63,038 bases of DNA from positions 2,065,089-2,128,126 of the forward strand of contig BFEA01000034.1 of the NCBI GenBank assembly GCA_003427395.1, read 5' to 3'. The position numbers and the translations under genes are program-made. The notes below the pieces were generated by a model. It ran no database searches. It saw only the letters and a program-made list of their open reading frames with translations, and was not told the origin of the DNA. The stretch is from Chara braunii. Its lineage: Eukaryota > Plantae > Charophyceae. This document shows positions 9,069 to 58,956 of this stretch, piece by piece. Every line of letters begins with the position of its first letter. Within the stretch, counting starts at the first letter, position 1.

Positions 9069-9095
9069 ATGGTCGGACGGCCTGCCGCCAATACG
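9069..9095 (+). pseudogene. gag: Probable first 9 codons of element A gag (MVGRPAANT), cut off by insertion of element B
   Basis: ATG lies ~120 bp after the PBS. It joins in frame to EAQNVNVQLGGAPV at 43424 (-) when B is removed and the inversion is undone. Confidence 0.5.
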
Positions 9096-11279
9096 GTTCA
9101 GTGTTGATACGATCGGTGCGACCATTGGGCAGCGACGTGAAGACACTGGTTTCAATTGACGTGATTACCGGTCCGGTGCTGGCAAGGTGCCGAGATAGTG
9201 TACTGCAGTTCCATCCTGTTATTTTAGGACCGGGGCTGGTACCGTCATTCTATGGGCACTTACGAGGAGTTGGGAAGAAATATTACAGTCTCCACTTGTC
9301 ACTTTGCTAAGGTTTTTGCTCTCGCACTGGTATTGTACACGTGCTCCTCGGCGTGACGTTCTGCATTGACCCGGTATGATTGTAGGATCGGCACTGACAA
9401 GGACTCGGTCGGATCCTATTTCTCAGGCTCTGTAATCGGCACGGTACTGAAACAACGTACTATGGCTCGACTTCATAGGTTCGACACTGTCATGAATGAG
9501 ACGACGATTGGTGTGCGCGGTTCAACTCTGTTATTTCCTTTCTGGTGCTAGGACTTGGATCGTGGCATTGGTGGTCGCAGATGGTACCCTTGTGCCTGTG
9601 GCGACCCTGCAACCCTGGTACTCGAGCGGAGACCGCCTTAGGGGCCCACAGCCTTTGGTGTCGTGGGAATTTAGACCGGGCGTCGACGGTAAGCACATCC
9701 GGCAAATGCGACCAGGGGAACTGGTACCAATGGTACCGGTGCGCTGTCCCGTGTCGTCCGAGCTATTCAAGGGAACGGGGGAGTCGGGACTTATGGGATG
9801 CTGTTGTGGAATAAAAGGAGGGTATTCAGAGTGGCGGGGGGACAGTGAGCCTGGCGTCCACAACCCACTTGCGCAAAGCCCGGTTGAGGTACAACGGGCA
9901 CTGGACTTGGGGCTCGGGCATGGAGGAGGCGACTATTGGGGGAGACTTCTCTGAGGCGCGCATGGCGTACCCAGCCCACCTCCTCATCGGGGTGAGGTCA
10001 GCGTGAGAATCCTGCAAGGCGCTCCCTATGTGGGAGTGCTTGAACAATTGGGCGAGCTCGGAGTGTGTGCAGCGCGCTCACGAGTGATTGAGTGGGAGTA
10101 TCCAGGCGGAGGATCGAGAACATGGGCGCGACGTGAAGCACCAAAGGACTGGCAAGAACCTGGGGGAAAACAAGTTGGGGGATAACGAGCAAGTACGGAA
10201 TACTCAGCGCCTAGATCATCGGTTGACTTCTCTACCATAGTTGCAGCACGGGCCGCCCTAGATGACGTGCAGGCAGGTGCGCGACAGAGAAGAAGACGAC
10301 ACGGGACATTCGAACTTGGGCGAACTGGGGAAGGTCCTGGTGTGCCACCCGTACACCGCCCACAACGTAGTTCAATCCCGAGCTCGTTGGTGAGATGCCT
10401 GCGAGGAGAGCAAGTCAACAGGGGGGGGCGAACTGAGCTGTGCGGGGACACTTGGAAGGAGCGTAAGACGTACATCTGCCAACTGTGTCTGATTCACATT
10501 GAAGGTGAGCTGCAGTATGCCCAATTCAGGGGGCGAGGACGTGAGATTTTTGCTCACCCGGGCTGGCGGATGAATGGGCAACCAGCATGAGCTGGATAAG
10601 AGGGATTGAGCAGTAACCAAGAAACATGGATCCAGCGAAGAAAGGAGAGGCATTCAATTGCGCACTGTGTACCCAGCGAGGGAGCGCGTGATCAGTCACG
10701 CGGACAACGGTTTTCTCACGAGCGGCGTGACCCCGCCATATCTCTTTGGAGACGAACTGTGGGTTGACGGGATAGAGTGACCAACCAGACTCAAGTGATC
10801 TGTCAATCAAGCGATCCCGCCGGTAGCAGCTTCACTCTGTGAACCATCAATCAAGCGGTTCCGCTGCTAGCGGGAACAACCCTTTTCAGCGATCTGGTTA
10901 TCAGTGATCCGCTTTTGAGTGATTTGTCAGCGGGCTATCGTTACCAATCTGGCAGCGAAAGAGGTAAGGGCGGGAAACTCAGACTCAAGCGTAAGTCGGG
11001 ATATCGTATCTGGGGGCCTGCCTGCGACTCGCGTAATCGGGGCGAGCAAGTCAGCACTTACGACCATGCCGTTTAATTTTATTTTATTATGATCCCAATC
11101 ACAGACAAGTGTTGGGGAAAGGTGGGGGGGAAAGCGAGCTTGTGCACAGAGAAGGGGAGAAGCGAACAACTTGGAGGGAGTGAGGCAGACGAGATAATTA
11201 TATATATATACATTTACGCAGATATACGTGCGCACTTGTGTCTCTCTGCCTACGGTTTACCGGGCAGTTCTGTTTGTGA

Positions 11280-11327
<48 letters not shown>

Positions 11328-11360
11328 ATATATACATATATATATATATATGTATGTATG

Positions 11361-11401
<41 letters not shown>

Positions 11402-12056
11402 CCAGATTTGAAAAGCAAAATTCGTCTCAGAAACATCGCTTCAATGAACTCACCAGATCTTGGTCATGCTTAGATGCGAAGATTGATTTATTACGAGGGG
11501 GATGTTTGAAAGGCACTGTGTGACGAGCGAGCCCGTGTAGTGAGAGGTGGAGACGAACTGCTTGGTTTTGTGCAGAAGAAGCCAGGAATATCTGGGGCGC
11601 AGTGACCGCCCCAAAGGGGGACCCTGTTTATGACTCTCAACCCTGATCTTAGGGTGCGGGGGGGTTGTGACTAAGATATTCAGAGACATTTTGTATAAAC
11701 ATTGACGGAGGACTTGGTGGCTTCCACTGAACAAAACGGCTTCCTCAACCGGTGCATCCTGAACTAGTGGAAGAGCGATCTTCTATCTCTGCCCGAGAAA
11801 GGGAATCGTTGTCTGTTTTATGAGTTCGAAGTGCGGGCGTTTAATCACTCATTTATCCTCACTGTTCATACTGAACGAATATATTAAATCTGGCAGGCTC
11901 GTGTATGCAGTCAATTCTCACTGGTCAAGGGTAAAGTTGAGGGTGTGCTTATGAGAGAGTGAAAGGGAGCACCTCGGAAGTGGGCGTGGCGAGTGACAGG
12001 CGTCGTTGCCCTTGGCTTCGGCGAACAGTAGGCGGCCCCTCTCGGGTTTCCTCACA
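9096..12056 (+). mobile_element. LTR B, 3' portion only (lacks the first ~1.1 kb), acting as 5' LTR of element B
   Basis: Colinear with 30161-32869 apart from ~0.4-kb indels. Ends CTCACA and is followed by a PBS. Confidence 0.85.
11282..11401. repeat. (TA)n/(TATG) microsatellite
   Basis: Read directly. Confidence 0.95.
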
Positions 12057-12059
12057 ACT

Positions 12060-12077
12060 TGGCACCGTTGTCGGGAA
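12060..12077 (+). promoter_or_regulatory. Primer binding site, tRNA-Asp type
   Basis: TGGCACCGTTGTCGGGAA lies 3 nt after the LTR-terminal CA. It resembles the TGGCGCCGTTGCCGGGGA PBS of plant Athila-type elements. Confidence 0.75.
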
Positions 12078-14326
12078 GGGGATTGCACCCCCAAGTTCGC
12101 GGCCTTCCCCAACCAATGGGGGTGCACGGGCTGATTAGTCAAACACTAATTAGCATGTTTTCTTGATTAGTTTTTATTTTTTATAATTGTTTTATTTAGT
12201 TCTTTTGAAATATCTTCTGATCCGCGTGTTTTTGTGTGAACCGCACAGGGATCAAAGTTTGTCTCCTCGAAGAGACGAACATTTTGAGACACTTTTCGGT
12301 AAATTCTGACAGCTAAATTTTTGGGAAATAAATTTTCTTTAATTTTATAATTATTAATTCAAAATTTCCCTTTTTGTTTACTATTTATTACGAAAAATAG
12401 GAGCAAAATCTGGGGAAAACCCCTGCACCAAAGTTGTCCAGAATATTTTTCCTGACATTTTGAGACCTTAGTCGGAGAAAACGGGCGCCGTTTGTAGAAA
12501 CGGCGAGCTCCAGCAGATAAGAAAAAAAAAAGAAAATAAAGGAAAACTTTGAATTTCTTTGTGATTTGATTGAAATTAAAAGGGAAAGAAATAAAGGAAA
12601 GTAGTCCGATAAGATTTTTCTATAAACCTTGTAGAATCTAGCGAAAAATTTCGTACGTCGATACGTAGTTTCCGGTGAGCATGCGAGCACGCGCAAGATC
12701 ATTAAACCCTAATTGGGAAAACCCTAATTAGGGGAGACCCTAGTTAGGCAAAACCCTAATTAGGGCTTTAGGAAGCGAGAGCAATCCCTAATATTATAGT
12801 AAAACCAGAATGTAGAAGGTGCTCACAAATGCCTTAAATTTTGTACTTTTCGGTATTTTTATTTGTTTTATTGATTAAAATTTGTGGAAAATATTTAAAG
12901 TAGTATTTTTATAATTTTAATTGCTTAAAATTGCTCTGCAGATTTCTTTTGGCAACAGATTAAGGGACTATTGTCCCGAACTCCATCCCCACGGGGGGGA
13001 GGGGAACTGCTGCCAAAAAATTTTAAAATTTCTATTTTATATGAATTTTTGGCTAATTAATTGACAAAAATAATATAAAATCCAGTAAAAATCAGTTTAC
13101 CATATTTTCACTATTCCTCTTAATTTTTCCCTTCCGACAACGTTTATTGTGGGCTTTGCCCGAACCCCATCCCAACGGGGGGAGGCGAAGTGCTGCTAAA
13201 ATTTTGATAAATTTCCTAAAACTAGTTCTTACATATGCTACCAGACGGGCTGCCTGGGTCCCGGGTGGCCATCCCGTGCAAGGACAAGGGAGGGTCCCAC
13301 AAAAAACAAACAAAATCCAAAAAATCCGAAAAAAAACCTATGTTATGCAAAAAAATAAACTAAACAACGTTTACCCCAGGGTCACATCAAAATTATTTAC
13401 CAATTTTAAAATATAAAATACAAATTTAAAATATTTTTTATTTTTTTATTTTTTAAATCTTTTTGGCCCTGTCGGGCAAGTGACCCAGGGCCACTCTGGT
13501 AGCCTAGGTTCTTACCTATAAAAGTTTTCAAACTCAGCAAACTTATAGATATATTATACCCTAATATGTATAAACAAGAAAAGGGATTTTATCATAATTA
13601 AATACATTTTCTTTGAATTAAAAATAGAAAAATACTAGGAAGTTCCCTAGAGAGGGAAGAAGAATAGAAGATGGGGTAACCGAGGTTCGGACGAACTTAC
13701 AGGGACTTTCCCGAGGGTTTGAGACTGGAAAAAGGGATTTTCGATAATTAAAAATATGTTTTTCTGTATTTATCTGATATAAATTAGAAACAAATAAAAG
13801 GGAAAGTAAAAAAGAGGTATGCATTTGCCGCGTCACTCGGTAGGGTTTACCTCGGGTATCCCTGTGCATTGAGCACGCGTCAATGAGTGCTTCTTCATAG
13901 AAAGCTAATTTTTGTTAATTTAAATTAATTAAATCCACGAAAATTAACAAAATGGCTTAGAAATCGGCAAGAGAGCGTGTGCAGCTCGTTTACCTTTGTC
14001 CGCAGCTAATAGGCAAGGTCTGTTGGCCGAGAGGGTGTCTGAGGAGCAGTAGGCAGGATTCCCTCGAATTGTGGATGCGCCTTACATTCGAGGGAACTTG
14101 GATATAAGGCTTGTGAGCCCAATCTGAGTTCGGAAAATATGCCCCAGTCGTCTAGGCTACTCTTGGACCCGTCCAGGACATAGGCAGGGAGCGTTTATTC
14201 AGGAATCGCCTCCCAAACCCCATCCCCACGGGGGGGGGCGAAGCGCTGCCGAAATTTTCCTAGGGTTTTAGAGTTTCCCTTGTTCATACTCTTAAGCCCT
14301 TCTGTACACATAAGCACCTAGATCGG

Positions 14327-15349
14327 ATGTGGCAATCCGAGGTCATAGAGGTGTACAAGGTTGATCGTGCGTGGGAGATAGAGCCCCCAAAGCTCGTAGC
14401 TGGGGGCCTAGTAGAGTTTACACTTCCTGAACGGCCCACTGATTGACACGACAGGCAGTCCCGGTGGAGGTCTGTTTTTTTATCCTCTGATGCTTGGCTG
14501 TGGACACACAGCGAGCACCTTAGAGGAGAGAGGGGAGGTATGACAGGCGGACTAGTGAGGGTCTACTTGTACTTAGGGGAGGAGGAGGCCAAAGAGGCCG
14601 CCTTGAGTCTCGTGACCTGGGGGACCAGTTCGATTATTGGTAGAGCCCTACGGTACTTACAGGAGGAGGTTGATGTTTTTCGGGAAGACGAAGAGCCTAT
14701 TGACCTTGTTTCACGGGCGACCTCCCCTTTCTATCACGGGCAATCTCTTGATAGCACCAAACACTTTCTTCCCGCATTCAGGGACCGGTTGGAGAGCAGT
14801 TCTCCCCAGTTTCATGGCAGACACAGTCTTCGGAGGGATATGAGGTTTAGTTGAGGCTTACCTCGCATTCAAAGAGCTTGAGCTCTTTGTCAGACGGAGT
14901 CTCGACGCTTCCTACATATACTACTCCCTCGCGGCGTCAGGCCTTCGCTGGGGAGATGAGAGGGTTCAACTGATAGAGTTGATCCGCTCCTTAGGGGACG
15001 ATTGCCAGAGGGGAGTGCCGCCGCCCTCGTACGTGTGGGACGTATTGGATCGGGGGCTTCGAGATGGGCCTGAGTACTTTACTTATATAGGCAGATTTTT
15101 CTCGGAGGGCTGGGCAGCTGGTGGAGTGAGAACGCTGGACCTCTCATATGTGATTACCAGTTGTCACGATATTATCGGGCGATAGGGCTCCCCCCGTACC
15201 GCATAGAGGACGAGGCGGACGAGAACGGGTGGATTAGAGAGGACGAAGAGGAGGCCTGGGAGCCAGATTGGATTGACTCCGAGAGCGAGGAGGAGATTGA
15301 CGTCACTGACGCTCACTTTCCTAGGATAGGAGTCGTCGTCAGGACATAG
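14327..15349 (+). pseudogene. Accessory ORF family 1, copy a (unknown function; stop codon and frameshifts)
   Basis: MWQSEVIEVYKVDRAWEIEPPKLVAGGLVEFTLPERP..QSRWRSVFLSSDAWLW aligns with copy b (EFDLPTR..QSRWRSTLLEPDVHLW). Distal QLIELIRSL aligns with QLVEFIRAL. Acidic tail. Confidence 0.7.
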
Positions 15350-15493
15350 GAGACGGTGTGTCGCGGTACGTGCAGGGAGGTTGTTTGGGTCCGAGAGTTA
15401 TTGATGAGGGAGTTATCCTAACGATAGTTCAAGTGAGGAGTGGTGACTGAGTGGACTTGGTAGTTAGTGTATTCAGCCGCGGGCTGTGACCCG

Positions 15494-16372
15494 ATGATAG
15501 AGCAGGTCGACAGAGTTGAGCTCCAGATGGGCAGTGCTAGATGGCCTTGGCCTCCTGAGACCGTGGCGCCCAACATACTAGAGTTTGATCTACCGACCAG
15601 GAGTGTGGTCGGACGCGGATATGGACTTCAGAGCCGGTGGAGATCGACATTGTTGGAGCCCGACGTGCACTTGTGGTCCTATGCGGTTGAGACCTTCAAG
15701 TCGGACAACCAGCAGTGGCGGGTGTCTGGTACGATGAGCGTGGAGGTCATAGGACATATTTATTACTCACGCACGATAGAGGCGACGGTCCATTATGAGG
15801 GGCTAGTCTATGATCACCGGCGAGGTGAGCACGGGGGGAGGACCATCCTGTGGGGGACTGTCAAGAGCGTTCGCAGGAAGGCCGAGGACTTGTATGGCCC
15901 AGTTAGGGTAGTGAGGACGACCCTCCGGATCGGAGGGGCCTTTCCATTTCCTAGTGTGCGACGGCGAGTGAGGGTCTCGACATTTGTTGCAGAGGAGCTC
16001 TAGGGTCTGGCCCGTATTTCCGAGACTTATCATGCTAACCTCGAGTTGGATGGGTTGAGGAGAGGGCTAGCGGACCGAGATTGGATTAGCGCCCAATTCA
16101 TCGCAAGGCCTTTTGTTGGGAAAAGGGGGCTCCAGCTTGTAGAGTTCATACGAGCTTTGGCACCTGCCGGAGACCCTGAGTCTTTCTTTTCCTACCAGCC
16201 TCCGGAGTTCTGGTTAGCCCTGGAGAGAGAGACCCAGAGACCTACAGATTATCTAGAGGGCGTAGGCCGACTCCTGAGTGAGGCAGCCGAGGACAGGCCT
16301 GCCCTGCTCATTTCGATCTGGGAGGTTGAGGAACACTATCAGCGGGAGGACCTTGTAGTGGTACGCCGATGA
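15494..16372 (+). pseudogene. Accessory ORF family 1, copy b (one internal TAG at 16001-16003)
   Basis: ORFs 15467-16003 and 16046-16372 are in the same frame and share motifs with the other copies. Confidence 0.75.
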
Positions 16373-16668
16373 TAGGGAGGCCTTCGACGATATAGAGCCT
16401 TGGGGGGATCAGGACCAGGGCTGGGGAGATTTGGCGATTGACATCGGAGAGGCGGTGGAGCAGGGCCGCGTAGGTGGAGAGGCGCAGCCGGAGGACGGTT
16501 GGAGACGCCTCCTTCGGGCCGAGGGACAGGAGGCTATCCCTTGGGGACGCGAGATAGATGGGGATGGAGACGCGAACATGGATTATTGACCGAAGATTGT
16601 GAGCGTATGCGAGCTGGAAGGAGAGAGTTAGAGAAGATGCTAGGGGTTATAGATGGGACGGCATGTGA

Positions 16669-17135
16669 TGTCCTTTAGACGAGTTTAATGGGATCAGCTA
16701 CTCACCGAGGGATGAGGCCCTACGAGAGAGGAAATCGATGATGTCGTACGATCCCTGAACAAGAAGACAAGCAGAGAGGTTCTCCCATACGAGCTCGACG
16801 CATACGATTATGTCCAAGGAGGAGGCGTATATCCTTGGCGAGTGTATGTTCTCACATATCACTTCATTAGCCTGGACGAGTATGACGTGCGAAATTATAT
16901 TCCTGCGACTCGTGCTAGACGAGAGTTGAGTGTGAAGGCTTGGAAGACCGCTGCTGGGTTGGTAGCAGGAGAGGTGGTACGATTACAACATGAAAGAAAG
17001 GTAGTTAGTAGGGATACTGGGATCAGAGTGTTCACAGGAATTCCGAGTCCCCCTGTCATAGGGAGAAACTTATCTAGATATGAATGACATGAGATGATAG
17101 AGTTGGTGACATGGATGAGAGACCAGGAACATTAG
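16669..17135 (+). pseudogene. Accessory ORF family 2, copy a
   Basis: VLPYELDAYDYVQGG..YVLTYHFISLDEYDVRNYI..W..IRVFTGIPSPP aligns with the copies at 19546 and 20070. Boundaries are approximate. Confidence 0.7.
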
Positions 17136-17160
17136 CACTTGCTTTGATGAGGCGGATAAC

Positions 17161-17919
17161 GTGATGAGGAGTGATGCAGATGTATGGTTGACATACGTTT
17201 TGACACGTGATTCAGATTTCGATAGAGCGAGAAAGCTGATAGCGCCAAGAGAGACGGGTGTGGGTTACGATGTACCTCTTCCGGTACGCTTAGAGGAGAT
17301 AGCTAGTGTGCCGGTTCGACACTTTGGCACTTGGTTGGCTGAGGGAGTTTTCTTGTGGACGGTGATTACAGAGGATAGAGGATTCGATATTCCCCGACGA
17401 CTGGAAGGAATAGGACATCTTGTGTTTGACAAAACACGAGATATAGAGATAGGGTTGACGCCTGACGGTGTTAGCAGAGGTTGGTGGAGGTACGAAGTCT
17501 TGACGGAGTCGATAGTGAGACGACAACTGACGATTTTTGCAGGAGACAGGCCTTACACCGTCCGAGTCGAAATTGGGCCTCCGCACTTAGTCTACCATCC
17601 GGTAGAGAGCTGGAGGTTGACTCTTCCTACGTTTGTTGTGGAACAAACTTATGGGAGCATAGACTGTCTGACTAGAGCAGTAAACCACACGTTGTACGCG
17701 CTCTGGTTATGACTAGCGCCTCGATTTAGAAAGGCGTACTATGCAATCTGCGTGAGGTGGGGACCCCTAGACAAGGAAACGTTGAGAACCCTGATCGACG
17801 CTATCTACTGGATAGATTGTCTGAGGCCTGCTGATATGATCTACTATTGTCGTAGACGCGTAGGGGACAGATACCCTGGCTTGGAGGACCTGAGGTATCT
17901 GCTCGAGGACCAGCAATAG
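17161..17919 (+). pseudogene. Accessory ORF family 1, copy c (one internal TGA at 17710-17712)
   Basis: VRVEIGPPHLVYHPVESWRLTLPTFVVEQTYGSI aligns with TRVEVGGWREFKAPMTGLRCRVPRFMVDLVFGSL of element C. WGPL aligns with FGPF. Confidence 0.75.
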
Positions 17920-17924
17920 GAGAC

Positions 17925-18610
17925 ATGCCAGGTCGGACGACTACGAGGATTAATGTAAGCAGGCAATTAGTGAACGAAGGTTTCACGGTGACTGTCTTAC
18001 TCAGAGCACACATAGACGAGGACCTGACAGAGCACGAGTGTTTTCTACGAGCCAGAGAATTCATTCGGGAATACAAACCAGGAGTCCTCCCATGCGTGAC
18101 TTTCCAGACCAAGATAACGTACGAAGTGATGGTATGGTCGACCGGATACCTACGTGCGGAGTTGTTCTTTGATGAGACGGTAGTGGAAGCTAGGAGTAGG
18201 ATATAAGTCAAGTTACCTTGTCATGACAGAGCGCGAGCTACCACTATATCGATATAGACCCCGAGCTTCGTACTCACTCCGGTGGGATCGCAGAGGGTCC
18301 GACTCCTGGAGGAGTGTGAATGGTTGGAATTCCCGAATATGGGAGTGTGACTACCTGCCTGCCTTCTCTGCTGCGACTTCCGTATGCCCGAGTTGTTTCT
18401 AGGCACTTATTGTGTGACGACGAGACACTACAGATTCTTATGAGGGTGAGCATAGAAGAGGAACTGTCGGATAGTGAGTTCAAAGAATTTGTTGAGGACG
18501 TCATACGGGAACAAAGGTTAGGAACACTGAAAGAGTTGACAACACAGAGTTGGGTGGTGTATGAGGTGATCATCTGCGTGAAAGGAAGAGTGCGTTTAGA
18601 GATGGTTTGA
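17925..18610 (+). pseudogene. Accessory ORF of unknown type (two fragments)
   Basis: ATG lies 5 nt after the previous stop. Fragments 17925-18206 and 18320-18610 have protein-like composition. Confidence 0.5.
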
Positions 18611-18642
18611 GACGAGACACCCTTGGAAGCTCGAAATAATAT

Positions 18643-18882
18643 GTGATAGGTGTTTTGGGCTTGGAGAGAGATGGGTCCCAGATGATGGACGACCTAGAGG
18701 AGAGGAAAAAGAGAGTCGAAGATCAAATTATAGAATTAGTGGTTAATCAAGTTAAGGAATTCGGCATCAAGATTCAAGATAGTGGGCCTAACAAGGATAA
18801 GAGTGGGCTACGTAAGATAGAAGGAGCGACGAGGGCAGTAGAAAGGCTTTTCAGAAAAGATAGAGAATTCTTCGGAAGATAG
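18643..18882 (+). pseudogene. Charged, coiled-coil-like accessory ORF fragment
   Basis: 79-aa E/K/R-rich ORF inside the array. Confidence 0.35.
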
Positions 18883-19040
18883 CGTCTAGAATTTTGGGAG
18901 AGCGTCAAGAGGAGAGATCGTAGTAGTAAGGAACAGGAGGGGTCACTTGAGTTGACGGGAAGGAAAGAGGAGTTGTCAGGGGTTGTAACGTCGAAAGAAA
19001 AGACAAATGTTGAAGGAACGTCGGACAATGAAAGGAGACG

Positions 19041-19538
19041 ATGAGCTTTGAAAAATATTATATGCGCATTGTAGGAAGGTCAGATGAACCAGTCGCTTGT
19101 GTGGTGATACAATTGGTCCACCTGGACAGACTTAGCGTAATCGAAGAAGCAGAGTGTACTCGACAAGTTGTGCAGAAAGCGCGAGTGACCGGAATCTGGG
19201 TAGGAGAGGGAAGCGCGTGTCTGATCAACTACTCGCTGTGCGTGTCTCCCTTACATGAGCACCCCTTGAGTAGGGTATGGCGCGGGACTCCTAGAAAGGC
19301 TGAAAAACTCTTAAAAAGTGAGGCGGAAGTGGCTGGAGATTTAGCAAAGGTCATAGTAGAGAGTTCCGTCCTCAGAATGTTCAAAGCGCACAACCATTAC
19401 TGGAGCAAGTACCTTAAGACTTTCGCATATATTGAAGATTTTGGGGATATAGACGACTTCGAGACATTCTACGAATTCTTGGAGGATTCTACGGACAAAG
19501 TCCTGTTGGCTTTAGCGTTGATCTCGATGGAATGTTAG
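19041..19538 (+). CDS. Intact 165-aa accessory ORF, unknown function
   Basis: ATG-initiated and uninterrupted, with globular-like composition. The next ORF starts 7 nt after its stop. Confidence 0.6.
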   Translation: MSFEKYYMRIVGRSDEPVACVVIQLVHLDRLSVIEEAECTRQVVQKARVTGIWVGEGSACLINYSLCVSPLHEHPLSRVWRGTPRKAEKLLKSEAEVAGDLAKVIVESSVLRMFKAHNHYWSKYLKTFAYIEDFGDIDDFETFYEFLEDSTDKVLLALALISMEC

Positions 19539-19545
19539 GGGGTTC

Positions 19546-20060
19546 ATGGAGACAGACGAGAGATGTCACTACCGGAGGCAGAGTTAGTGCAAAGGAGACG
19601 GGGGTTTTCAGTATGGAGCGGACCTAGTAAACTTGAGCACGAGAAAGTCCTTCAAGATTTGAGCGCTATTAGCAGACGGTAAATCTTTCCTTACGAAGTA
19701 GTGAAGTATCAGGAGGCAAACAGCGGTCGGTAAAGAAATCAGTTTTATGTGATGACCGTATATTTTTCTGACTTCGGAATATACCACGTAGGTATATATT
19801 TACCTAGAGAGCGCGAGGATTTTTGTGTCTACACGAGGTGTTGGAGGATAGCCGCGTGGAAGCTGAGGGAAGAGAGAAAGAGATTAGAGGACTTGGAAAA
19901 GACTGTCGAGGTCTGCGACGACATCGCTATATTTGACGATCTGCCTAGGCCGCCGATCCCGTATAGAGGACTGGAGCAGAATGGATGGGAGCCGATAGTA
20001 GACTTCGTCAGGACAGTCAGGACGAGGAGTGAGCTCAGGAAAACGGTGAGGAACGAATAG
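19546..20060 (+). pseudogene. Accessory ORF family 2, copy b
   Basis: IFPYEVVKY..YVMTVYFSDFGIYHVGIYL..RCW..IAIFDDLPRPP. Confidence 0.75.
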
Positions 20061-20069
20061 GATGAAGGA

Positions 20070-20565
20070 ATGAGTAAAGGGAGAGTTATCTCTGATTGCG
20101 AATTGCAGGCAAGAAGAGAAAGATTTCTTGCTGGAAACAGACCATCCGAGGAGAGACTAGAAACTATCTGTGGACTTTTGAGTTCCCTAGGGAGGAGAGA
20201 AGTGATTCCATATGAGGTAGAAAGGTACGAGTTTGTGGATAGTGGATGAGAGGAGATACGACTATATGTGATGACTGTCAGGTTTTTCCATTTAGACGTG
20301 TATGATGTGAGGATCTACCTACATGTGGAGAGAGGAGTAGACCTTTGTGTACGACCGATGTTGGGAGTGCGCTGAAGAGATTGTAGAAGTCGAAAGACAT
20401 AGATTACTATCGCTAGGGAAAAACGTTAACTGGAGCACGCGGATAACGATCTTTGGAGGGTTTCCTAAACCTCCGACTCCGAGTCAAATTGCGCAAAAGA
20501 GAAACTTTGGCACGGTGATTGAACTTGCCTTAAGGCATCAGGCGTTTGATGGCAAGAGGCGGTGA
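20070..20565 (+). pseudogene. Accessory ORF family 2, copy c
   Basis: VIPYEVERY..YVMTVRFFHLDVYDVRIYL..RCW..ITIFGGFPKPP. Confidence 0.75.
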
Positions 20566-20806
20566 GTACCCGTTGGCGGGTGCCAGTGCAGTGCAGCAAG
20601 GATTGAATGAAGTGTCCTGAGACAGGGGTGTTAGAGGTTAGGAGAGGTGCCGCATGTATAGAAGAAAAGGGCGGACGCCCTATACTCGACAGTGGGATAC
20701 TAAGTGTCGAAGGGACCCACGAGGTCCGAGACGAGACCGGAACACTGAGAGTGATACTGAGGGTTGTCGAGAGCTAGATTTAGGCATTTAGAGACCGGCG
20801 GGATTA

Positions 20807-20910
20807 GTTCTGACATTAGGTCCGGGCTGCCGGTTCTGACATTAGGTCCGGGCTGCCAGTTCTGACATTAGGTCCGGGCTGCCGGTTCTGACATTAGGTC
20901 CGGGCTGCCT
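20807..20910 (+). repeat. 4 x 26-bp tandem repeat (gttctgacattaggtccgggctgccN) just upstream of gag
   Basis: Read directly. Units differ only at the last base. Confidence 0.95.
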
Positions 20911-20963: not shown

Positions 20964-23900
20964 ATGGAATCTGACACAATGGGTCCACATCCGGATGAGG
21001 AACAACAGACCGCTGTGTACCGAGCGTCACCGGATAGTGCTCTGCGGGACCTCAAGGAGCGTATCCGACAGAACGCTCCATTGAGATGTGTGGAGCGACC
21101 CGACGACAGGGAGCCCGAAGTAATGGCCTGCCCAGTCATTGCAGAGCCAGATAGGGCAGCTACGGTGGTACGAATGGAGAGTCGAACCGAACCTCCGAGT
21201 TTTCGGCGAGATTCGAGTATTCGACATTCACCTACGTATGAACAAAGAGATGATAGAGGTGATCGAGGAAGGGATGGCTGGAGGGACCAGTATATCAGGG
21301 AGCAACTTTGGAGAGACAGAGAGAGGGTCACACCGCCCAGACGGATGTATGACCCACAGACGGGCGAGTCGTATTCCCTACCATACGAGAGGAGAGACAT
21401 GTTCATCATCTCACACCAACCTTCGGAGTTGGACACCAACCCCCCTATTTTCAAGGGATACAGTATCACCAAATATCTTGAGAAGTGGGAGCTACACGCA
21501 TACCGTAGTCAATGGTCAGAGGACGAGATTATAGATAACTTCCTATTTAACGGGGATCTGAGCCTGAGTCAGGAGATCAAAGAAGCCCGACCCAAAGATA
21601 GACGATGGGCTACCTATAAGGCCAGTCTCTACCAGCTCTACAAACTAGAAGACGTTAAGTATTCAATCCAAGTATTGGAGCAGTTGACTCAGGGAAAGGA
21701 CGAGAGTGTTCGGGCTTTCGGAAAGCGATTCCAGAAGGTATCCGATGCCCTTATTGCAAGAGGGAAGTTGTCGGAGGTCGAGAGATGCACGATCTTCCTC
21801 GGTCGGCTACCCAGAGGGAAGCAGGAGGGAGTACTAAGAGAAATGCCTCACGATAAGTTAGACTTTGTCACGCTACTCCAGTTGGCAATGAAGGCTGAGG
21901 CCGATGACTACAAGGATTTACTCTGGAGGGGAATGCAGCGTCGGGACTTTTCCCACTATCGGGAATACGAGACTGATAGGTGTCCAGATTTTAACGATCA
22001 GCCATGGGCAGAGTGGCGATATTTGATGGACAAAGACAAACCATAACGACCGAGGGACAACGACACGGTGATAGACGAGGTGAGAGAGATGAGAGAAATG
22101 ATGAAGGGAATGGTCAGGCAGATGGTCAATATTGAGACTAAGGCGGGAGCTACTCGGGACAAGTCGGGGTCCCCCTATTCCTTGCGATGGGACCGTAGGA
22201 ACACCAACCCGTGGAGGAGCGTCAAGGATTGGAACCCTCGCACGCTGGCGGACTACCATGCAAGAGAGATGGACGATGATGCCAGGCGACGTAAAGATGA
22301 TGACATAGACAGAGACCGCCAACGTGACGGGTATCGGGGAGTAGACTCTTTTAGTCGAGGAGGAAGGCTGGAGAAGTATCCGCGCAGTCCCAGATATGGA
22401 GACGGGTACCGGAGCCCAGACAATTTCAATTCCAGCAACAGAGAGGATTCCCGCGGCAGATGGGAATAACACAGGGATCGCCATGATGGGAATCGTGGTG
22501 TATACGAGAGAACAAAGTGAGATGGAGGTCGCCGGAAAGAAACACGCGGGCATTATGACCGAGGAGGATATCCTGCCTCGCCTGGATATCCAAAATCTCC
22601 GAACTATCCCAAGTTCCCGGGACCGTCTACCCAGGATGTCAGACCCGCAAGAGGGCCAACTATTAGGAGCACGGAAGAGCGACCCCCTACTCCCAGGAAC
22701 TCTTGTATCTATTGCAGGGCAGATGATCACGTGAAGAGGGACTGTCGTGACCTCAGGCGGGCAATAGAGGAAGGACTTGTCGTACTTGATGAACGCAAGT
22801 ACGTCAAGTGGGCGGATGACCTCGGCGATGTATCGATGTTCCCTTCTATGAAGGAGAACATTGAAGCCAGGTGTGTACGACCAAGTAAGGGTAAGGAAGT
22901 GGCGAGGAACCAGAGTGTGAGATTGAGTTTGTCTTCTGATGATGGGGCGCCAACGACACCTTTACGAGTAGCGGCGACTAAGTCCGCAAGGGCGTCTTCC
23001 TCTAAGAAGGCTGACACCGATTACGTAATGGCAGAGAAGGATGGGCAGAGGATTGAAGGAGAGGAAGTCATACTTTCGCCGCGCAAGCGAGGAGCCCGGA
23101 AGCTTACCATGAAGAGCAGCTTGGACGATATAGATACGGTAGTTGTATAACCGGCTGAATGCGTTCACGTTCAGACGCGCGCGTTCATACCCCCCGGGGC
23201 CGCGTTCAAACACGCTGCGCGCCACATGGCGCAAAAAAATTGAACGCGACCCCAAGGGGCGCGCGCGCCCGTTACAGACTACAAGGTGGTGGGCCTCGTT
23301 CAAAGAACCCTGAAAGTGCAAGAAAAAAAAAAAAAACAAGGCCTACCCCCCCTACCACATCACCCCCCACCAGATGCAAAAGGTCCTTTTGTTTGGGGGG
23401 GGGCGGGCAGGGGAATCCCCCTAGCACGACTCAGACGGCCCATGCAGGCTATCTGTAGGGTCCTCGCAGCCATGTAGCGCAGACCCCCCCACCGAAATCA
23501 AGGCAGGCAGTGAGTATGAAGTATAGCTCGAGCTGCCCGAATATATACTCAAGATTTGACTTCAGGTCTGTGTTTCAGCAGTTATGGGTTGCTCACGTAG
23601 GGCCTGCTGGTCTCTGCACGTGACTCTTAGGGTCTGGCTGCACTACTCACCAAATGTGCAAAACTAGAATAAATCTTCTGCAAAACATGGAATAATACGC
23701 CGCCATATGTTTTGTCTTTTGTGCATGTGGTGAGTAGAGGCCCTTAGGGCCACTGCACGTATTCCTAAGAAAAGAAAAACCAGAAAAAATGAAAAACGAG
23801 AAAAATGAAAAATGAAAAAAAAGAAAAACAAGAAGAAAGAAAACAAGAAAAAAAACAAAACATATGGCGGCGTATTATTCCATGTTCTGCAGAAGATTCA

Positions 23901-25484
23901 TTCAAGTTTTGCACATTAGGTGAGTAGTGCAGCCAGACCCTAAGAGTGTCACGTGCAGAGACCAGCAGGCCCTAGCTACGTGAGCAACCCATAACTGCTG
24001 AAACACAGACCTGAAGTCTATTCTTGATTATATATTTGGGCAGCTCGAGCTCTGCCTCATATTCACTGCCTGCCTTAATTTTTGTGGGGGGGTCTGCGCT
24101 ACATGGCTGCGAGGACCCTTCAGATAGCCAGCATGGGCCGTCTGAGTCGTGTTAGGGGGATTCCCCCGCCGCCCCCCCCCCCCCCNNNNNNNNNNNNNNN
24201 NNNNNNNNNNNNNNNNNNNNNNNNNNNNNNNNNNNNNNNNNNNNNNNNNNNNNNNNNNNNNNNNNNNNNNNNNNNNNNNNNNNNNNNNNNNNNNNNNNNN
24301 NNNNNNNNNNNNNNNNNNNNNNNNNNNNNNNNNNNNNNNNNNNNNNNNNNNNNNNNNNNNNNNNNNNNNNNNNNNNNNNNNNNNNNNNNNNNNNNNNNNN
24401 NNNNNNNNNNNNNNNNNNNNNNNNNNNNNNNNNNNNNNNNNNNNNNNNNNNNNNNNNNNNNNNNNNNNNNNNNNNNCTCCCCCACCCCGCACAACCACCT
24501 GCGCAAACTCGTCAAACGCGTTCACGCACGTCCAGTGAACACGTATTCACGTCGTTCATACCCTGAAAGTGAAACGCGCGTTCAATGAACGCGCGGTAAC
24601 ACAGTAAGGTAGAGCCTCTTAGACACGCTCTTAGGTAGCCCATGCAGTGTACCACACTTGAGTACTTGGCGGCCTCGAGACCTGCGCGAGACGAGCTACA
24701 GATGATCACGTGCAAGGGACACATTCCTCTGGGAGACGAAGTCCAGGTGACTTCCAAACCGGAGGTACCGTCCGTGGCAGTATCGGGAGTGTGCGCTAAG
24801 GCCGAACGCGCAGCGACAGTGTATTTGGATGGAATGGAAGGTGTGCCTCCTGACAAGTTTTACATTTTAGGGAGTGGGACAGTGGAGACCATTCTCAACG
24901 ACGAGGTAATTCTCCATGCGGTGATTGACAGTGGCAGTGAAGTCGTCATCATAGATGAGGAGTTCGCTGTACGCCTAGGGCTGGACCTCGACAGGTCCTA
25001 CCTATTTGAGATAGAGACAGCTGATGGGAGAAAGCAGAAGATTTTTGGGGTTTGTCAGAAGGCGGCCATTGAGGTCGAATGGTTGCGCGTACTGATGCCT
25101 GTTTTTGCTGTCAGGGATTGCAGCTCAGAGTTACTATTAGGGCGGACGTGGTTGAGCCATGTTCACGCGGTGACTAGAGAGCGACCGGACGGAAGCCAGA
25201 TGCTATCCATCAAGCGTCCGGATGGTCGACGAATTTTGATAGAGACAGTTGAGTCTCGTGATTCGAGAAACAAAGCGATTCTGGCAGCAGGTGGTCGCAA
25301 GCCAGTCACGCTCGGAAGTCGCTCGTTGAACTTTCGCGAAAAGAAGTATGGGTCCTTGCTCACAGAAGAAGGGGGATGCATAGTAGAGGTCGAGGACTTA
25401 GGCAATCGAGTCCTTGTGGGAGGGAACTCCTATCCTAAGGCTAAAGATGAGGAATTCGGAGGTATAATCTCTGTGTCTTTTTAA
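20964..25484 (+). pseudogene. gag: Gag-protease of element B (in-frame stops; interrupted by the insert at 23143-24607)
   Basis: All pieces are in one frame. Capsid-like region (FKGYSITKYLEKWE; QGKDESVRAF), zinc knuckle CIYCRADDHVKRDC at ~22704-22745, protease motifs AVIDSGSE and LLLGRTWL. Confidence 0.9.
23143..24607. mobile_element. Non-coding foldback/MITE-like insertion with 5-bp target duplication GGTAG
   Basis: GGTAG at 23138-23142 and 24608-24612. Removing the insert restores the reading DIDTV-EPLRH. Internal inverted arms at ~23395-23712 and ~23857-24185. Contains an N gap. Confidence 0.8.
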
Positions 25485-28400
25485 GGGCGCAGCCCCCTAC
25501 GGGGGGCGACCAAAGAAACACAAAACAGTAGCTCAGAAGGTTAAGACGGTTGCGGTGGCCCGAGAGCGATTCACACTAGATGGGGTATCTGAAGAAGAGA
25601 TCGCTAGAAAAATTAAAGAGAGGAAGAAGAAGGAGCCGCAACGGTTGACAAAAGAAAGGATAGCGGAGATGGATATAGGAGATGGAAACTTGACCGAACA
25701 AGAGAAGGGGCGCGCGCTAGAAGTACTTAAGACCTGCGACAAGGCCATAGTTTTTAGTGACGCGAAAAGAGGGAGAATTGATCCTAGGTATGCCAAGCCT
25801 GGCAGGATCTACACGATCCCGCATACTCCATGGAATGATGCCGGGTGGAAGTTTGCTCAGAAAGAGAAGGAGGAAGTAATTGTCTTTCTCAAAGAAAAAA
25901 TGGCGTCACATATGGCTGAGTCATCTGATAGCGCGTACGCGAATAGGTGGTTCTTCTTAAGGAAGCCTAATGGGAAGATCTGATGGATTCATGACCTTCA
26001 GAAGGTTAATGCAGTTACAATTCGAGACGTGGGCTCCATACCACATGCTGATCTGTTAGCGAAAGGAGAGACGGGCATATCTATTTACTCTGTCTGCGAT
26101 CTATTTTCACGCTATGATGAGATACCCCTAGATCCTAGGGATAGACATCTCACGACCATGCACGCGCTGCTCGGCTTAGTGCAGATGATGGTCGTGCCCA
26201 TGGGATGGACCAATGGAGTCGCGGTTTTCCAGATAGCTATGGTAGTTATTCTAAAAAGGACTTCATTCCTGATAAAGTTGAAGTATTTCTGGACGACTTC
26301 CCGATTAAAGGATGAGACACAGGTTGCTCCTGGTGTCAGGAGATTCGTAGAGCAGCACCTAACGGACATCTACGCGGTTCTAGAACAGCTAGATGAAGCT
26401 AACTTGATGGTCAGCGAGACAAAGAGTCGGTGGGTTGTATCGACAATTAAGATTCTAGGGTTTATATGCGATTCAAGGGGTCGTCGAGCGGACCCGGGAA
26501 AGTTAGAGAACTCCTGAACTGACCGACTCCATTGGATAGCGCTACTGAAGTCCGCAAATTCTTAGGAGTTGTAGGCTACTGGAGGATTTTCATACGTGGA
26601 TACGCGGAGAAGACAGAACCTTTGCGAACTCTCCTTAGGAAGACGGAGCGGTGTTACTGGGATTCTCCCCAAGAGCTTGAAGTACAAACCCTCAAAGAAG
26701 AGTTTAAAGAAGGGGGATGAATCCTAGGCGTGCCATTTTTCGAGGACGAGACCAACAAGCCATTCATAGTGTCTACGGATGTTGGGCCGTGTTCGGCTGG
26801 AGGGCTGCTTGGTCAAAAGGACACCGACGGCAAGGAGAGCCTAAGCAGGTTTTACTCTACACAACCGGCAAGCCACTCACTTTGCGTCTACTTTCAATTC
26901 TAATTTGCTGGCCGCTAAAATTCGAGAGTCGTACGCTCAACACCGCTGAACGCAACTACAGTCAGTTTAAGAAGGAGGTGTTAGTTGTTCTACGGTGTTT
27001 AGACGCCTTTAGACACTACATATACGGGAGACGATTCGTTCCACGGGTAGATCCTACAGCTGTGGCGTCAGTTTTACAGAAGGAATTCAGTCTGGCGGAT
27101 CCCACAATTGCGCGATGGCTGATTAGGATCTGACTCTACGATTATACTGTAGAGAGGATCTCGGGAACGAAGAATGCGGTTGCTGATGGACTTTCACGGA
27201 TTCCGATCGAGTCGGAGCGACCAATAGCGGCAGTTGCACTAACTATGACTAAACATAGACGAACAAATCGCTTCCTGGTTAACCTCTATGAAGGGAAGTA
27301 CCGGGCCATAGGACTGCATCTGTCATGAGAGGAGAGTTCTGATCCGGAGATTAGGAGACATGTGGCACAGTACTGCCTTCGATCTGACCATTTATTCCGC
27401 CGACCTACGGGATCAGGAATGCCATTACGAGTAATCTGTGACCCCGAGGAGAAGCAGTCCATAGTGGCAGAACTACATGATGGTGTGGTTAGCGGGCATA
27501 GAGGAGTTAAAGGGACATATGAGAAGGTTCGCCGATTATACTGGTGGGAAGGACAGTATAAAGACGCCGAGAAGTATTGTGTCACGTGTGAGGAATGTCA
27601 GAAGGAGTCCCTTGTCAGGTACAAGGAACCGTGTCATCCTTCTTATCCTACTAGACAAGGCGAGAAAGTACATATTGACCTGGTAAAGATGTCGAAGGGT
27701 GTAGGGAATATGAATTATGTAGTGAACATCAGAGACGATTTCACTGGGTTTGTCGACGGCAAGCCTATCAGAACGAAGGTCGCTAAAGAAGTTAAGAACT
27801 TTGTTCTGGAATATTTGTCTAAATACGGGTGTGTCAGTAAGATTGTGATGGACAGAGGGGCGGAGTTCCTGGCAGACGAGGTGCAGAGTGTGTTCAAGAA
27901 AGCGGGAGCGATAGTATCGATAGCTACCGTCTATCACCCTCAATCCAACGCACCTGTAGAACGAGGTCATCAATCATTGATAGCGTCCTATCGAAGTGGT
28001 GTAGAGGTAAAGATAGTGACTGGTCAAAATATTTTCGATATGCGATATGGGGAGATAACGTAACAGTCCGAGCTAGCACAGGATACCCGCCTTACACTCT
28101 GTGGTTTGGGAGGCATTGCCCTCTGCCCATAGAGTTTCATGTCAATAGTTGGACTACAGTTGATTGGGCGGATAGTATGTCGCGAGAGGAGCTTCTGGAA
28201 GCTAGGACTAGTCAGATAGCCTACGGATTAGAGGACAACCTCATGACCGCTGTCAATCGACTGGCGGTGGAAAGGGAGAAAGGCAAGGTGAGATGGGATA
28301 AAGATATCAGAGTTAGAAAGGAAAAGATTAGAGTCGGCGACATGGTGCTTCTCTATCACGCTACATTGGAAAGGACATGGTCAGGGAAGCTGGCTAATAG

Positions 28401-28560
28401 ATGGATGGGTCCCTACCACGTAGTTGCTGCACTCAATTGGGGAGCATATATGATTGCTGAGCTAGATGGGTCGGAGTGAAAGGATCCTGTGGCAGGGGCA
28501 AGGCTGAAGTTGTTTAGGCCAAGGGAAACTCCTGCTCCTGCCCTGAGACTATCAGATCCT
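25480..28560 (+). pseudogene. pol: Pol of element B: RT, RNase H, integrase (stops and frameshifts)
   Basis: RT motifs PMGWTNG and VFLDDF (frameshifted), FLGVVGYWRIFI. RH motifs ERNYSQFKKE and NAVADGLSR. IN motifs HDGVVSGH..CEEC, HIDL, DRGAEF, HPQSNAPVERGH and WMGPY. Confidence 0.93.
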
Positions 28561-29034: not shown

Positions 29035-32000
29035 TGTCGGGCGGCCGAATGTCAGTCGACCACCCGAAATCCGATGGATTACACCTTAGATTGTCTGCCT
29101 AGAGAGGGATTGACCGGGACGTTCGTCCGAACCGTAAGGAAAAATTAGGGGTCGGGGAGAGACCCCTAATATTCTCTATGTCGGCTATTGAAACTGACTC
29201 TTGAAATTAACGTGATGAACAGGCGCGCCTACCGCGCCTAGCGCCTACCCTTTTCCCTTCGATCCGAGGTTGTTCGCGATGCGGTCGGCCTCGGAGTCGG
29301 GACGTGGTGCTAGGGCTCGGCGCGCCCCTTTTACACTAGCCAATTGATGAGGGAATGAACCCTCAAAATTTCATTAACTCTACTGACAAATTTAAAATTG
29401 CGAAAAAGAATTAAAAATAATAAAAGGAAAGAAAGTAAATGAATATTCGTTATTTTATTAAATTTCGTCAAAATTTATCCTTGATGAAATTATTCGCAAA
29501 TTTCTTCGATTCCAGTGACGGGGTTAAAAATAAGAAAAATAATTAAAAATGGTAAAAAGGGACGAAACTAACGATTTTTTTATTTATTTAATTAGAGTCT
29601 ATGAAATTCCATTCTCACGGATTTTTGTCAAAACTACCCATTTAATCCCTTTCATTGGTTTGATCCGATTCTTGCTAATTTTCTTATGTTCCGCCAACGT
29701 TCCCTGATTTTCCTGGTTTTCTTGACTTTCCTGATATTACCTGATATTCTTGATTATTACCCTCCCTATCAACTAGAGTATTCCTTTTGGGTGAGTGAGG
29801 TCCTTGTTCCACGAACTTTGGTGACGGCGGATGGATCAGCGAGGCGGGGTTTTTGGGGTTACAGCAACATTCTCGGTTTGGCGCTGCGATTGGTACTTCT
29901 ACAAGGCGGCCGCCGGACTCTATTATGGTGGTATGGATGGTGGTTTGGGATAAGCACGTCACTCTGGTTCGGGGCAGGTTCGGTACTATCACAGCGCATC
30001 GAAACGGTACGGTGCTCTGTACTACTGGTACGGCGGCTCGGTACAAGTCGGGACGCTGGGTTGAAACAAACATGGTACACAGGTTTGGGCACGCCACGGT
30101 ACGCTGGTTCAGGTCAGGTGCGGTATGGTTATTGGGACAACGTTGGTACAGGCTACTACTGTTCGGTGTTGATACGATCGGTGCGACCATTGGGGCAGCG
30201 ACGTGAAGACACTGGTTTCAATTGACGTGATTACCGGTCCGGTGCTGGCATGGTGTCGAGACAACATACTGCAGTTCCATCCTGTTATTTTATGACCGGG
30301 GCTGGTACCGTCACGCTATGGGCACTTACACGGATCTGGGAAGGAATATTACAGTCTCCACTTGTCACTTTGCTAGGGTCTTTGCTCTCGCACTGGTATT
30401 GTACACGTGCTCCTCGGCGTGACGTTCTGCATAGACCCGATATGATTGTAGGATCGGCACCGACGAGGACCCGGTCGGATCCTATTTCTCAGGCTCTGTA
30501 ATCGGCACGGTACTGAAACAACGTACTATGGCTCGACTTCATAGGTCTGACACTATCATGAATGAGACGACGATTGGTGTGCGCGGTTCAACTCTGTTAT
30601 TTCCTTTATGGTGCTAGGACTGGGATCGTGGCATTGGTGGCCGCAGCTGGTACTGTTGTGTCTGTGGCGACCCTGCAACCCTGGTACTCGAGCGGAGACC
30701 GCCTTAGGGGCCCACAGCCTTCGGTGTCGTGGGAATTTAGACCGGGCGTCGACGGTAAGCACATCCGGCAAATGCAACCAAGGGAACTGGTACCATTGGT
30801 ACCGGTGCGCTGTCCCGTGTCGTCTGAGTTATTCAAGGGAACGCGGGAGTCGAGACTTATGGGATGTCGTTGAGGAATAAAAGGGGGGAATTCATAGTGG
30901 CGAGGGGGACAGTGAGCCTGGCGTCCGCAGCCCACTTGCGCAAAGCCCAGTTGAGGTACAGCGGGCACTGGACGCGGGGCTCGGGCATGGAGGAGGCGAC
31001 TATTGGGGGAGACTTCTTTGAGGCGCGCATGGCGTACCCAGCCCACCTCCTCGTCGGGGTGAGGTCAGCGTGAGAACCTGCCGAGGCGCTCCCTATGTGC
31101 GAGTGGAGCGCCAGACGTACATCTGCCAAGTATGGCTGATTCACATTGAAGGTGAGTTGCAGTTTGCCGGATTCAGGGGGCGAGGACGTGAGAGTTTTGC
31201 TCACCCGGGCTGGCGGATGAATGGGCAACCAGCATGAGCTGGATAAGAGGGATTGAGCGGTAACCAAGAAACATGGATCCAGCGAAGAAAGGAGAGGCAT
31301 TTAATTGCGCACTGTGTACCCAGCGAGGGAGCGCGTGATCAGTCACGCGGACAACGGTTTTCTCACGAGCGGCGTGACCCCGCCATATCTCTTTGGAGAC
31401 GAACTGTGGGTTGACGGGATAGAGTGACCAACCAGACTCAAGTGATCTGTCAATCAAGCGATCCCGCCGGTAGCAGCTTCACTCTGTGAACCATCAATCA
31501 AGCGGTTCCGCTGCTAGCGGGAACAACCCTTTTCAGCGATCTGGTTATCAGTGATCCGCTTTTGAGTGATTTGTCAGCGGGCTATCGTTACCAATCTGGC
31601 AGCGAAAGAGGTAAGGGCGGGAAACTCAGACTCAAGCGTAAGTCGGGATATCGTATCCGGGGTGAGCAGGTCAGCGCTTACGACCGTGCCGTTTAATTTT
31701 ATTTTATTGTGATCCCAATTACAAACAACTGTTGGCGAAAGGTGGGGGGGAAAGCGAGCTTGTGCACAGAGAAGGGGAGAAGCGAACAACTTGGAGGGAG
31801 AGAGGCAGGCGAGATAATTATATATATACGTATACGCAGATATACGTGCGCACTTATATATATATATGTATAACTTGATTTGAAAAGCAAAATTCGTCTA
31901 AGAAACATCGCTTCAATGAACTCACCAGATCTTGGTCATGTTTAGATGCGAAGATTGATTTATTACGAGGGGGATGTTTGAAAGGCACTGTCTGACGAGC

Positions 32001-32869
32001 GAGCCCTTATAGTGAGAGGTGGAGACGAACTGCTTGGATTTGTGCAGAAGAAGCCAGGAACATCTGTGGCACAGTGACCACCATAAAGAGGGACCCTGTT
32101 TATGACTCTCAACCCTGATCTTAGGGTGGGGGGGGGGGTTGTGAATAAGATATTTAGAGACATTCTGTATAAACATTGACGGAAGACTTGATGGCTTCCA
32201 CCGAACGAAACGGCTTTGTCAACCGGTGCATCCCGAACTAGTGGGAGAGCGATCTTCTATCTCTGCCCGAGAAAGGGAATCGTTGTCTGTTTTATGAGTT
32301 TGAAGTGCGGGCGTTTAATCTTACTCATTTATCCTCACTGTTCATACTAAACGAATATATTAAATCTGGCGGGCTTGTGTATGCAGTCAATTCTCAGTGG
32401 CCAAGGGTAAAGCTGAGGGTGTGCTTATGAGAGAGTGAGAGGTTAAAGGGAAGGGAAGGATACAACGCGAAGTGTCGGTTACCTGCTCATGCTCTTTTGA
32501 TTCGATACTCTCCCTTGCTTCTCTTGTTTTATTTATATTTCCGTCTCTTGGTTAACTATACCCAGGCCTATTGTGTTAATTTCCCCTTGCCATAAACCCT
32601 CCCCTGCCGAACTGCAACAGAAAGGGTCATCATAGTTTTCGAACCCCCTGCTGAAAGCAATCAATTATGACTAAAAAACAAAAATTACATAAAATTACTC
32701 TATCGGAAACAAAGGACGACGGATCGGTTCCGACGCGTGTGTGGCAGGCAAAGTGGACATTCAACCCTGCTGATCGCCGAGGACCTCGGAAGCGGGCGTG
32801 GCGAGTGACAGGCGTCGTTGCCCTTGGCTTCGACGAACAGTAGGCGGCCCCTCCTCGGGTTTCCTCACA
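29035..32869 (+). mobile_element. Full-length LTR B (~3.8 kb), probably a recombinant of two copies
   Basis: TGT...ACA ends. The first 1.1 kb matches the reverse complement of 43423-44514 and the remainder matches 9096-12056. Followed by ACGA. Confidence 0.85.
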
Positions 32870-57191: not shown

Positions 57192-57310
57192 TTTTTACTT
57201 ACTAGTCCCCTGCACAGTTTAAACAGCAAGCGGTTTTACTTATTTCATTTAATCTTCAACTCCCTCCCCGGTTTCTAGCTTGAACCTTCCTTTTCTTTCC
57301 TTGACCTCTT

Positions 57311-58940: not shown

Positions 58941-58956
58941 TGCTCCCTACCTGCAC

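Follow-up and report, generated by a model that had tools for sequence, protein, structure and literature searches.

What is encoded by the DNA that separates the primer-binding site (PBS) from gag in a Ty3/Gypsy long terminal repeat (LTR) retrotransposon of the alga Chara braunii? We addressed this question in a 63,038-nt stretch of the C. braunii genome (the window, whose positions serve as coordinates throughout) that holds one such element, element 1. An initial annotation of the stretch had placed about nine same-strand genes, mostly of ~165-300 codons, at 14327-20565, with the PBS on one side and gag of a Gypsy element on the other. The location and the common strand remain as described (the PBS starts at 12060, the gag ATG is at 20964), and the array is now divided into ten gene models of 87 to 364 codons, arranged in the order A1, A2, B1, A3, C1, C2, D, E, B2, B3, which fill 91% of the interval and are accompanied by two further doubtful small frames, C2n and F. 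These genes are almost certainly real and carried by the element.

An array of accessory genes upstream of gag

14327-15349, plus strand: A1, family A, about 339 codons, acidic tail; two stops and two frame breaks, spanned by homologues 44-50% identical (P0057, P0061, P0064, P0076, P0083)
15494-16589, plus strand: A2, family A, about 364 codons, acidic tail; one stop and one frame break, both spanned by P0056 (54% over 370 residues)
16653-17135, plus strand: B1, family B, start uncertain, open from 16716; 27-33% identical to B2 and B3 (E 5e-13 and 6e-16)
17164-17919, plus strand: A3, family A, 251 codons; one stop; P0092 51% identical over its first 123 residues, and the family-A genes of element 2 matched at z 6-7
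17925-18206, plus strand: C1, family C, 93 codons, unbroken; P0014 59% identical over 85 residues, followed in P0014 by gag of the element-1 family
18223-18381, plus strand: C2n, mini-frame with a copy of a 29-residue gag peptide, 55% identical to element 1 gag (E 5e-8)
18383-18646, plus strand: C2, family C, about 87 codons, start uncertain; one stop; 36% identical to C1 (E 4e-13)
18682-19044, plus strand: D, 120 codons, highly charged; one stop; the weakest of the ten, supported by its open frame and an ATGA overlap with E
19041-19538, plus strand: E, 165 codons, unbroken; P0011, P0013 and P0015 39-42% identical over ~150 residues, each then continuing into gag of the element-1 family
19563-20060, plus strand: B2, family B, 165 codons; two stops; 34% identical to B3 (E 4e-21)
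20070-20565, plus strand: B3, family B, about 164 codons; one stop and one frame break; assigned by comparison with its family-B paralogues
20607-20777, plus strand: F, possible small open reading frame (ORF) of 56 codons, doubtful, proposed from the open frame alone
20806-20909, plus strand: four tandem copies of a 26-nt unit upstream of gag

The coding nature of the array is apparent from its scarcity of stops, of which ten were counted in 1,884 codons where about 136 are expected at the off-frame rate, together with four frame breaks (a tally that takes B1 from 16716 and would gain two stops if B1 began at the ATG at 16653). The gag-pol region of the same element carries nine stops in 1,988 codons (Fisher p 0.82 against the cassette), and because the two densities are about equal the cassette has probably been decaying for about as long as gag-pol, implying that it was intact at insertion. 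The initial reading of these frames as coding genes therefore stands, though they are not intact in the present copy: eight of the ten contain stops or frameshifts, and only C1 and E are unbroken. Natural homologues span all four breaks in A1 (four of the five cover all four) and both breaks in A2 with length differences of 0-3 residues, and indels are found in other copies at two of the four frame breaks.

The paralogy within the array is likewise richer than was first described. Three members of family A and three of family B correspond to the two families originally proposed, whereas two supposed singletons form the pair C1 and C2. Against 300 shuffles, the comparisons among B1, B2 and B3 and that of A1 with A2 each beat all, and the A1/A3 score was reached once; A2 and A3 are not significantly similar as a pair, and A3 matches the family-A genes of a second Gypsy element in the window, element 2. 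As the initial annotation had noted, the resemblance resides in the proteins and not in the DNA, for which blastn (word 7, E<0.1) found no match between paralogues, and its claim of long selection on coding capacity is supported in the form of accessory genes belonging to the element. Profile-profile comparison did not connect any one of A, B, C, D and E with another.

The association of the array with its element extends to other loci. Homologues elsewhere were identified for A1, A2, A3, C1 and E at the identities listed above, and the gene models that hold the homologues of A1, C1 and E run on into protease or gag of the element-1 family. In each DNA run the cassette is covered by about 1,840 contigs, which together fill 30 of 30 bins. 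The accessory proteins have diverged further than the replication proteins that accompany them, with identities of 50% for A1 against 68% for protease within one model (P0057), ~40% for E against 64-69% for gag, and, between lineages, 22-29% for family A against 39-57% for reverse transcriptase (RT), a sequence pattern resembling that of an arms race.

Several observations weigh against this interpretation or reduce what its evidence can carry. No homologue of B, D or F was found outside the window; word-seeded homology searches, both limited by length, returned nothing for A3 (382 candidates) or for the B alignment (2,125 candidates). Nearly all of the homologues that were found are automatic gene models of one species, predictions that carry no evidence of expression. 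The 16 paralogue pairs compared have identities of 0.35-0.55, 0.44-0.63 and 0.20-0.37 at codon positions 1, 2 and 3, highest at position 2 and near random at position 3, a pattern that is favoured by the protein-guided alignments from which it was obtained. Joints in other copies skip B1 (16549 to 17161) or C2 (18196 to 18637) almost exactly, which weakly suggests gain and loss of whole genes, each joint being carried by one contig per run and perhaps representing a single deletion. Finally, the 39 coding differences drawn from 40 of the 954 places where the present copy differs from nearly all others (one of the 39 classed in a frame that was later corrected) show no excess of synonymous change (6 of 39; 29.5% expected), a comparison that is not a dN/dS test and gives no support.

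The two retrotransposons and the spread of family A

9092-12057, plus strand: 5' LTR of element 1, 93% match to 30157-32868
12060-12077, plus strand: PBS-like sequence directly 3' of the 5' LTR, possibly of the tRNA-Asp type as in Athila
12078-14326, plus strand: leader, AT-rich and ATG-poor, with three copies of a GC-rich motif, characterized by ATG and motif counts
20964-28512, plus strand: decayed coding region of element 1 with gag, protease, RT, RNase H and integrase; Pfam matches in Ty3/Gypsy order
30157-32868, plus strand: 3' LTR of element 1, recognised as a direct repeat
56406-59805, minus strand: element 2, four head-to-tail family-A genes upstream of its gag (ATG 55941), 25-29% identical to each other (E 1e-11 to 1e-15), at ~59805-58995, 58940-58207, 58084-57311 and 57191-56406

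With matches to PF03732, PF13975, PF00078, PF17917, PF17921 and PF00665 giving the order gag, protease, RT, RNase H and integrase, two LTRs in direct orientation and a PBS after the 5' LTR, element 1 is a Ty3/Gypsy LTR retrotransposon. The LTRs differ by a Kimura two-parameter distance of 0.08 (2,345 columns, microsatellite excluded), and all 22 relatives of the gag protein are C. braunii gene models. No tRNA gene is present in the window. The 3' boundary of the element is less certain than the 5' boundary because a repeat of another element adjoins the 3' LTR and no flanking duplication of the target site was recognised.

Several Gypsy lineages of the genome have family A in common, a point missed by the initial annotation. 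The four A genes of element 2 have homologues 71-90% identical at other loci, and RT of the relatives of element 2 is only 39-57% identical to that of element 1. A profile of the A genes in the window obtained 72 matches among 1.84 billion proteins, 37 of them joined to gag of the element-2 type and others to protease of the element-1 type or to a third gag-like type. Look-ups of 30 matches gave 28 C. braunii models, a protein of an assembly contig and a repeat artefact. P0095 (a repeat) and P0090 were dropped, the latter being a C. braunii kinase gene model that ends in a family-A fragment and is probably a prediction chimera. The third group (P0085-P0089, P0093, P0094 and P0096) is joined to gag-like sequence unlike that of either element in the window. 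Neither P0054 nor the integrase, when used to scan metagenomes, picked up a relative. In a quick tree, family-A proteins group by their position in the array; long branches meet in this tree and we claim no order of duplication from it.

Further features of element 1 and its surroundings deserve description. The leader contains 17 ATGs against 28.3 +/- 5.4 expected, and its GC-rich motif occurs at 12988-13013, 13171-13196 and 14224-14249 (three copies seen, none by chance). This motif is very abundant in the genome, with a summed depth of ~8,900 against 90-1,700 in the cassette and loose ends on both sides. Of its three copies just one folds clearly better than shuffled sequence, as a three-way junction (z -4.5); Rfam offered no credible match, and the motif is possibly a packaging or processing signal. 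Gag-pol is interrupted at ~23150-24640 by a palindromic insertion with inverted arms (92-95%) and an assembly gap. Just 5' of the 3' LTR, a 1.1-kb stretch (29035-30137) recurs inverted at 43423-44514, the head of another Gypsy element; it holds a hydrophobic frame of 179 codons (29686-30225), and the frame of the other copy continues into a gag-like frame at 43128-43943.

Protein properties, expression and possible roles

The proteins correspond neither to one known retroelement ORF nor to a recognisable captured host gene. No Pfam family, transposon domains included, was matched at E<=1 by 15 cassette pieces (A3 excluded), and PF03078, PF10536 and PF04195 were absent both from these pieces and from 54 family-A rows (A3 included). 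The cassette proteins had no match in Pfam, PHROGs or PDB sequences, and the Foldseek search that the initial annotation had recommended, run on models of A and B, gave no significant match in PDB or BFVD. The initial annotation had suggested silencing suppressors analogous to VANC, or movement factors; VANC or the plant mobile domain, Athila ORF-1 and movement proteins had no match at the sequence level and did not appear among the fold matches listed, which also lacked a MAIN-like fold. Structure models, made for A and B, are of the alpha+beta class, and the jelly-roll core of 30K movement proteins was not among the fold neighbours listed for them. Similar neighbours were listed for B and for the N-terminal domain of A, though their profiles are unlinked. 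For family A, chimallin, a protein that assembles into a lattice, is a tentative candidate for a shared N-terminal fold. A reading of B as a double-stranded-RNA-binding domain, from its alpha-beta-beta-beta-alpha order, was set aside, such domains not being among the fold matches listed; atlas assignments of B1 to phage-tail clusters (0.93, recognition below the trusted level) and of P0037 (scores under 0.9) were not used. No transmembrane segment was found in the cassette models (highest 19-residue hydropathy 1.47), and no column is invariant in the 54 family-A rows, the most conserved residues being P, G, F and Y (29 full-domain rows). On these sequence features, the cassette proteins are probably soluble and without enzyme activity.

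How so many genes might be expressed from one transcript is suggested by their junctions. Of the short gaps reported initially, those of 5 nt (17919/17925) and 9 nt (20060/20070) were confirmed, whereas the ATG that closes the 7-nt gap (19538/19546) is out of frame and opens only 13 codons in the present copy, the in-frame ATG of B2 lying at 19563. D and E provide a further tight junction, overlapping by ATGA (19041-19044), and the resulting spacings of -4, 5 and 9 nt suit termination-reinitiation. Plant pararetroviruses use reinitiation and polycistronic mRNA, in cauliflower mosaic virus (CaMV) with a helper protein (PMC5902531), and polycistronic mRNAs are described in green algae (PMC7896298). 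Leaky scanning was judged unlikely, and serial reinitiation over ten ORFs weak without a helper, because the cassette lacks ATG depletion. In the cassette region of element 2, all three TGTGCAG sites (55955, 57210 and 58951, minus strand) lie 11-19 nt before the starts of two cassette genes and gag, which suggests one splice acceptor per gene. The stops at 15347, 17917, 19536 and 20058 in element 1 are TAG followed by G, with A1 and A3 sharing the same eight letters from the stop onward; such stops could double as splice acceptors, in which case the short gaps would be accounted for as well. Upstream of gag, the 26-nt tandem unit contains a branch-point-like CTGAC plus AG and may serve gag splicing.

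Together these features lead us to a tentative model in which about ten accessory protein genes belong to a Chara Ty3/Gypsy family, the array having grown by tandem duplication as in an arms race and having decayed in the present copy along with gag-pol. Alternative 3' splice acceptors and stop-start reinitiation on the LTR transcript would yield the proteins, which, being soluble and non-enzymatic, would bind proteins of the host and help the element withstand its restriction. We regard this counter-defence role as the likeliest of the readings considered, though somewhat short of probable. A gag peptide (22170-22244) is also copied within C2n (18265-18339), with differences mostly at third codon positions and mostly synonymous, and is perhaps a decoy or a shared linear motif.

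The model must be set against contrary indications. The argument for counter-defence is one of analogy and rate of change, and the A proteins are acidic (32 lysine or arginine against 60 aspartate or glutamate residues in A1), arguing against direct RNA binding. With regard to expression by reinitiation or splicing, itself a proposal by analogy, the TGTGCAG pattern was picked after being seen and element 1 lacks it, and the cassette is not ATG-poor (102 against 113 expected). RNA records are sparse, with 89 of 16.65 million in one run (three at >=95% likeness, in both orientations) and one of 8.92 million in another; they derive mostly from diverged copies, contain no joints and are too few to decide the mode of expression.

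Alternatively, the proteins may regulate the element's own RNA, as reinitiation helpers or export or splicing factors in the manner of TAV or Rev, or form extra parts of the particle or of a protective shell, a role that we consider rather unlikely. Less likely still is a function in transport, in which B, and perhaps the N-terminal domain of A, would be a far-diverged gelsolin-type domain that binds actin, so that the element's particles would travel with cytoplasmic streaming in the giant cells or pass through plasmodesmata toward reproductive cells. Against this reading, all Z scores are below 8 (a common arrangement, according to the tool), unrelated folds reach 5.5 and identity is 6-15%; the B model, of B2, derives from four rows with a predicted local distance difference test (pLDDT) score of 70, three of five models falling under 40; and gelsolin has no Pfam, PDB sequence or profile match, with nothing from Foldseek at E<=0.001. 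An extension of this idea would make the Chara Gypsy elements virus-like retroelements whose expandable accessory "operon" arose from a captured gelsolin-type domain and grips actin streaming for particle movement through giant cells and from cell to cell, giving them their own movement and counter-defence array in parallel to caulimoviruses, which we think improbable. A last reading treats the cassette as a useless passenger, captured from an unsampled virus or from the host, or as a nested insertion of another element. This would fit the weak RNA signal and the restriction of homologues, among the 30 of 72 matches looked up, to Chara models and one assembly contig, but it is very hard to reconcile with paralogues that are saturated at third positions within and between lineages yet stayed open until insertion, with orthologues 40-59% identical that remain upstream of the same gag type, and with the lack of any transposon domain.

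Relation to known systems

Small ORFs upstream of gag occur in Gypsy elements of the Drosophila mdg1/412 group, where sORF1 and sORF2 encode short membrane peptides; the cassette proteins are instead predicted to be soluble and comprise 87-364 residues. Env-like ORFs sit between pol and the 3' LTR, whereas the cassette lies upstream of gag and has no transmembrane segment. A literature search by titles and the beginnings of abstracts returned no description of a multi-paralogue array before gag in Chara, a subject that the Chara genome paper and the supplements of PMC6317226 may cover. The main text of that survey does not include Chara, and it reports that no non-chromoviruses were found in algae (PMC6317226).

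The arrays are of broader significance in that plant LTR elements are known with one or two extra ORFs, and up to ten are found here in several lineages from the algae that are sister to land plants. They comprise new protein families whose members duplicate and diverge and seem to be lost one gene at a time, thereby offering many natural variants; family A has a confident fold and family B gives a testable structural lead. In practical terms, dozens of "hypothetical" C. braunii gene models are pieces of these Gypsy elements and not host genes.

Extra ORFs in plant Gypsy elements are described as diverse and mostly located between pol and the 3' LTR (PMC6317226, PMC7264820). The closest plant counterparts are the OTA elements (Ogre, Retand, Athila), which likewise carry fast-changing extra sense ORFs, some upstream of gag, in large Gypsy elements with long LTRs (PMC6317226, PMC7264820); Ogre, however, is credited with one or two (PMC6431247), against about ten from three paralogous families in Chara. 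The planarian Burro/GYPSM1 element also combines a Gypsy backbone with a large additional coding load and with upstream accessory ORFs believed to interfere with systems of the host, but its additions are described as recognisable host domains, mostly in one polyprotein, in contrast to the separate small genes, novel families and paralogue expansion of the cassette (PMC6431247). In bdelloid LTR elements, ORF3 similarly represents one accessory family spread across diverged retroelement lineages of one genome, though as single known enzymes or env downstream of pol (PMC5408684). VANC of the VANDAL DNA transposons, a lineage-specific accessory protein in conflict with the host, is a model for the role proposed here; it is reported to derive from MAIN-like proteins of DNA transposons, to which the cassette has no such match (PMC13547354). 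The Caulimoviridae (CaMV and rice tungro bacilliform virus) share with the cassette the packing of ORFs ahead of the capsid and RT genes, translated there by reinitiation or leaky scanning, with accessory proteins that counter defence (PMC5902531). Element 1 differs from them in possessing LTRs and an integrase, in having no movement-protein or TAV match and in showing no ATG depletion in its cassette.

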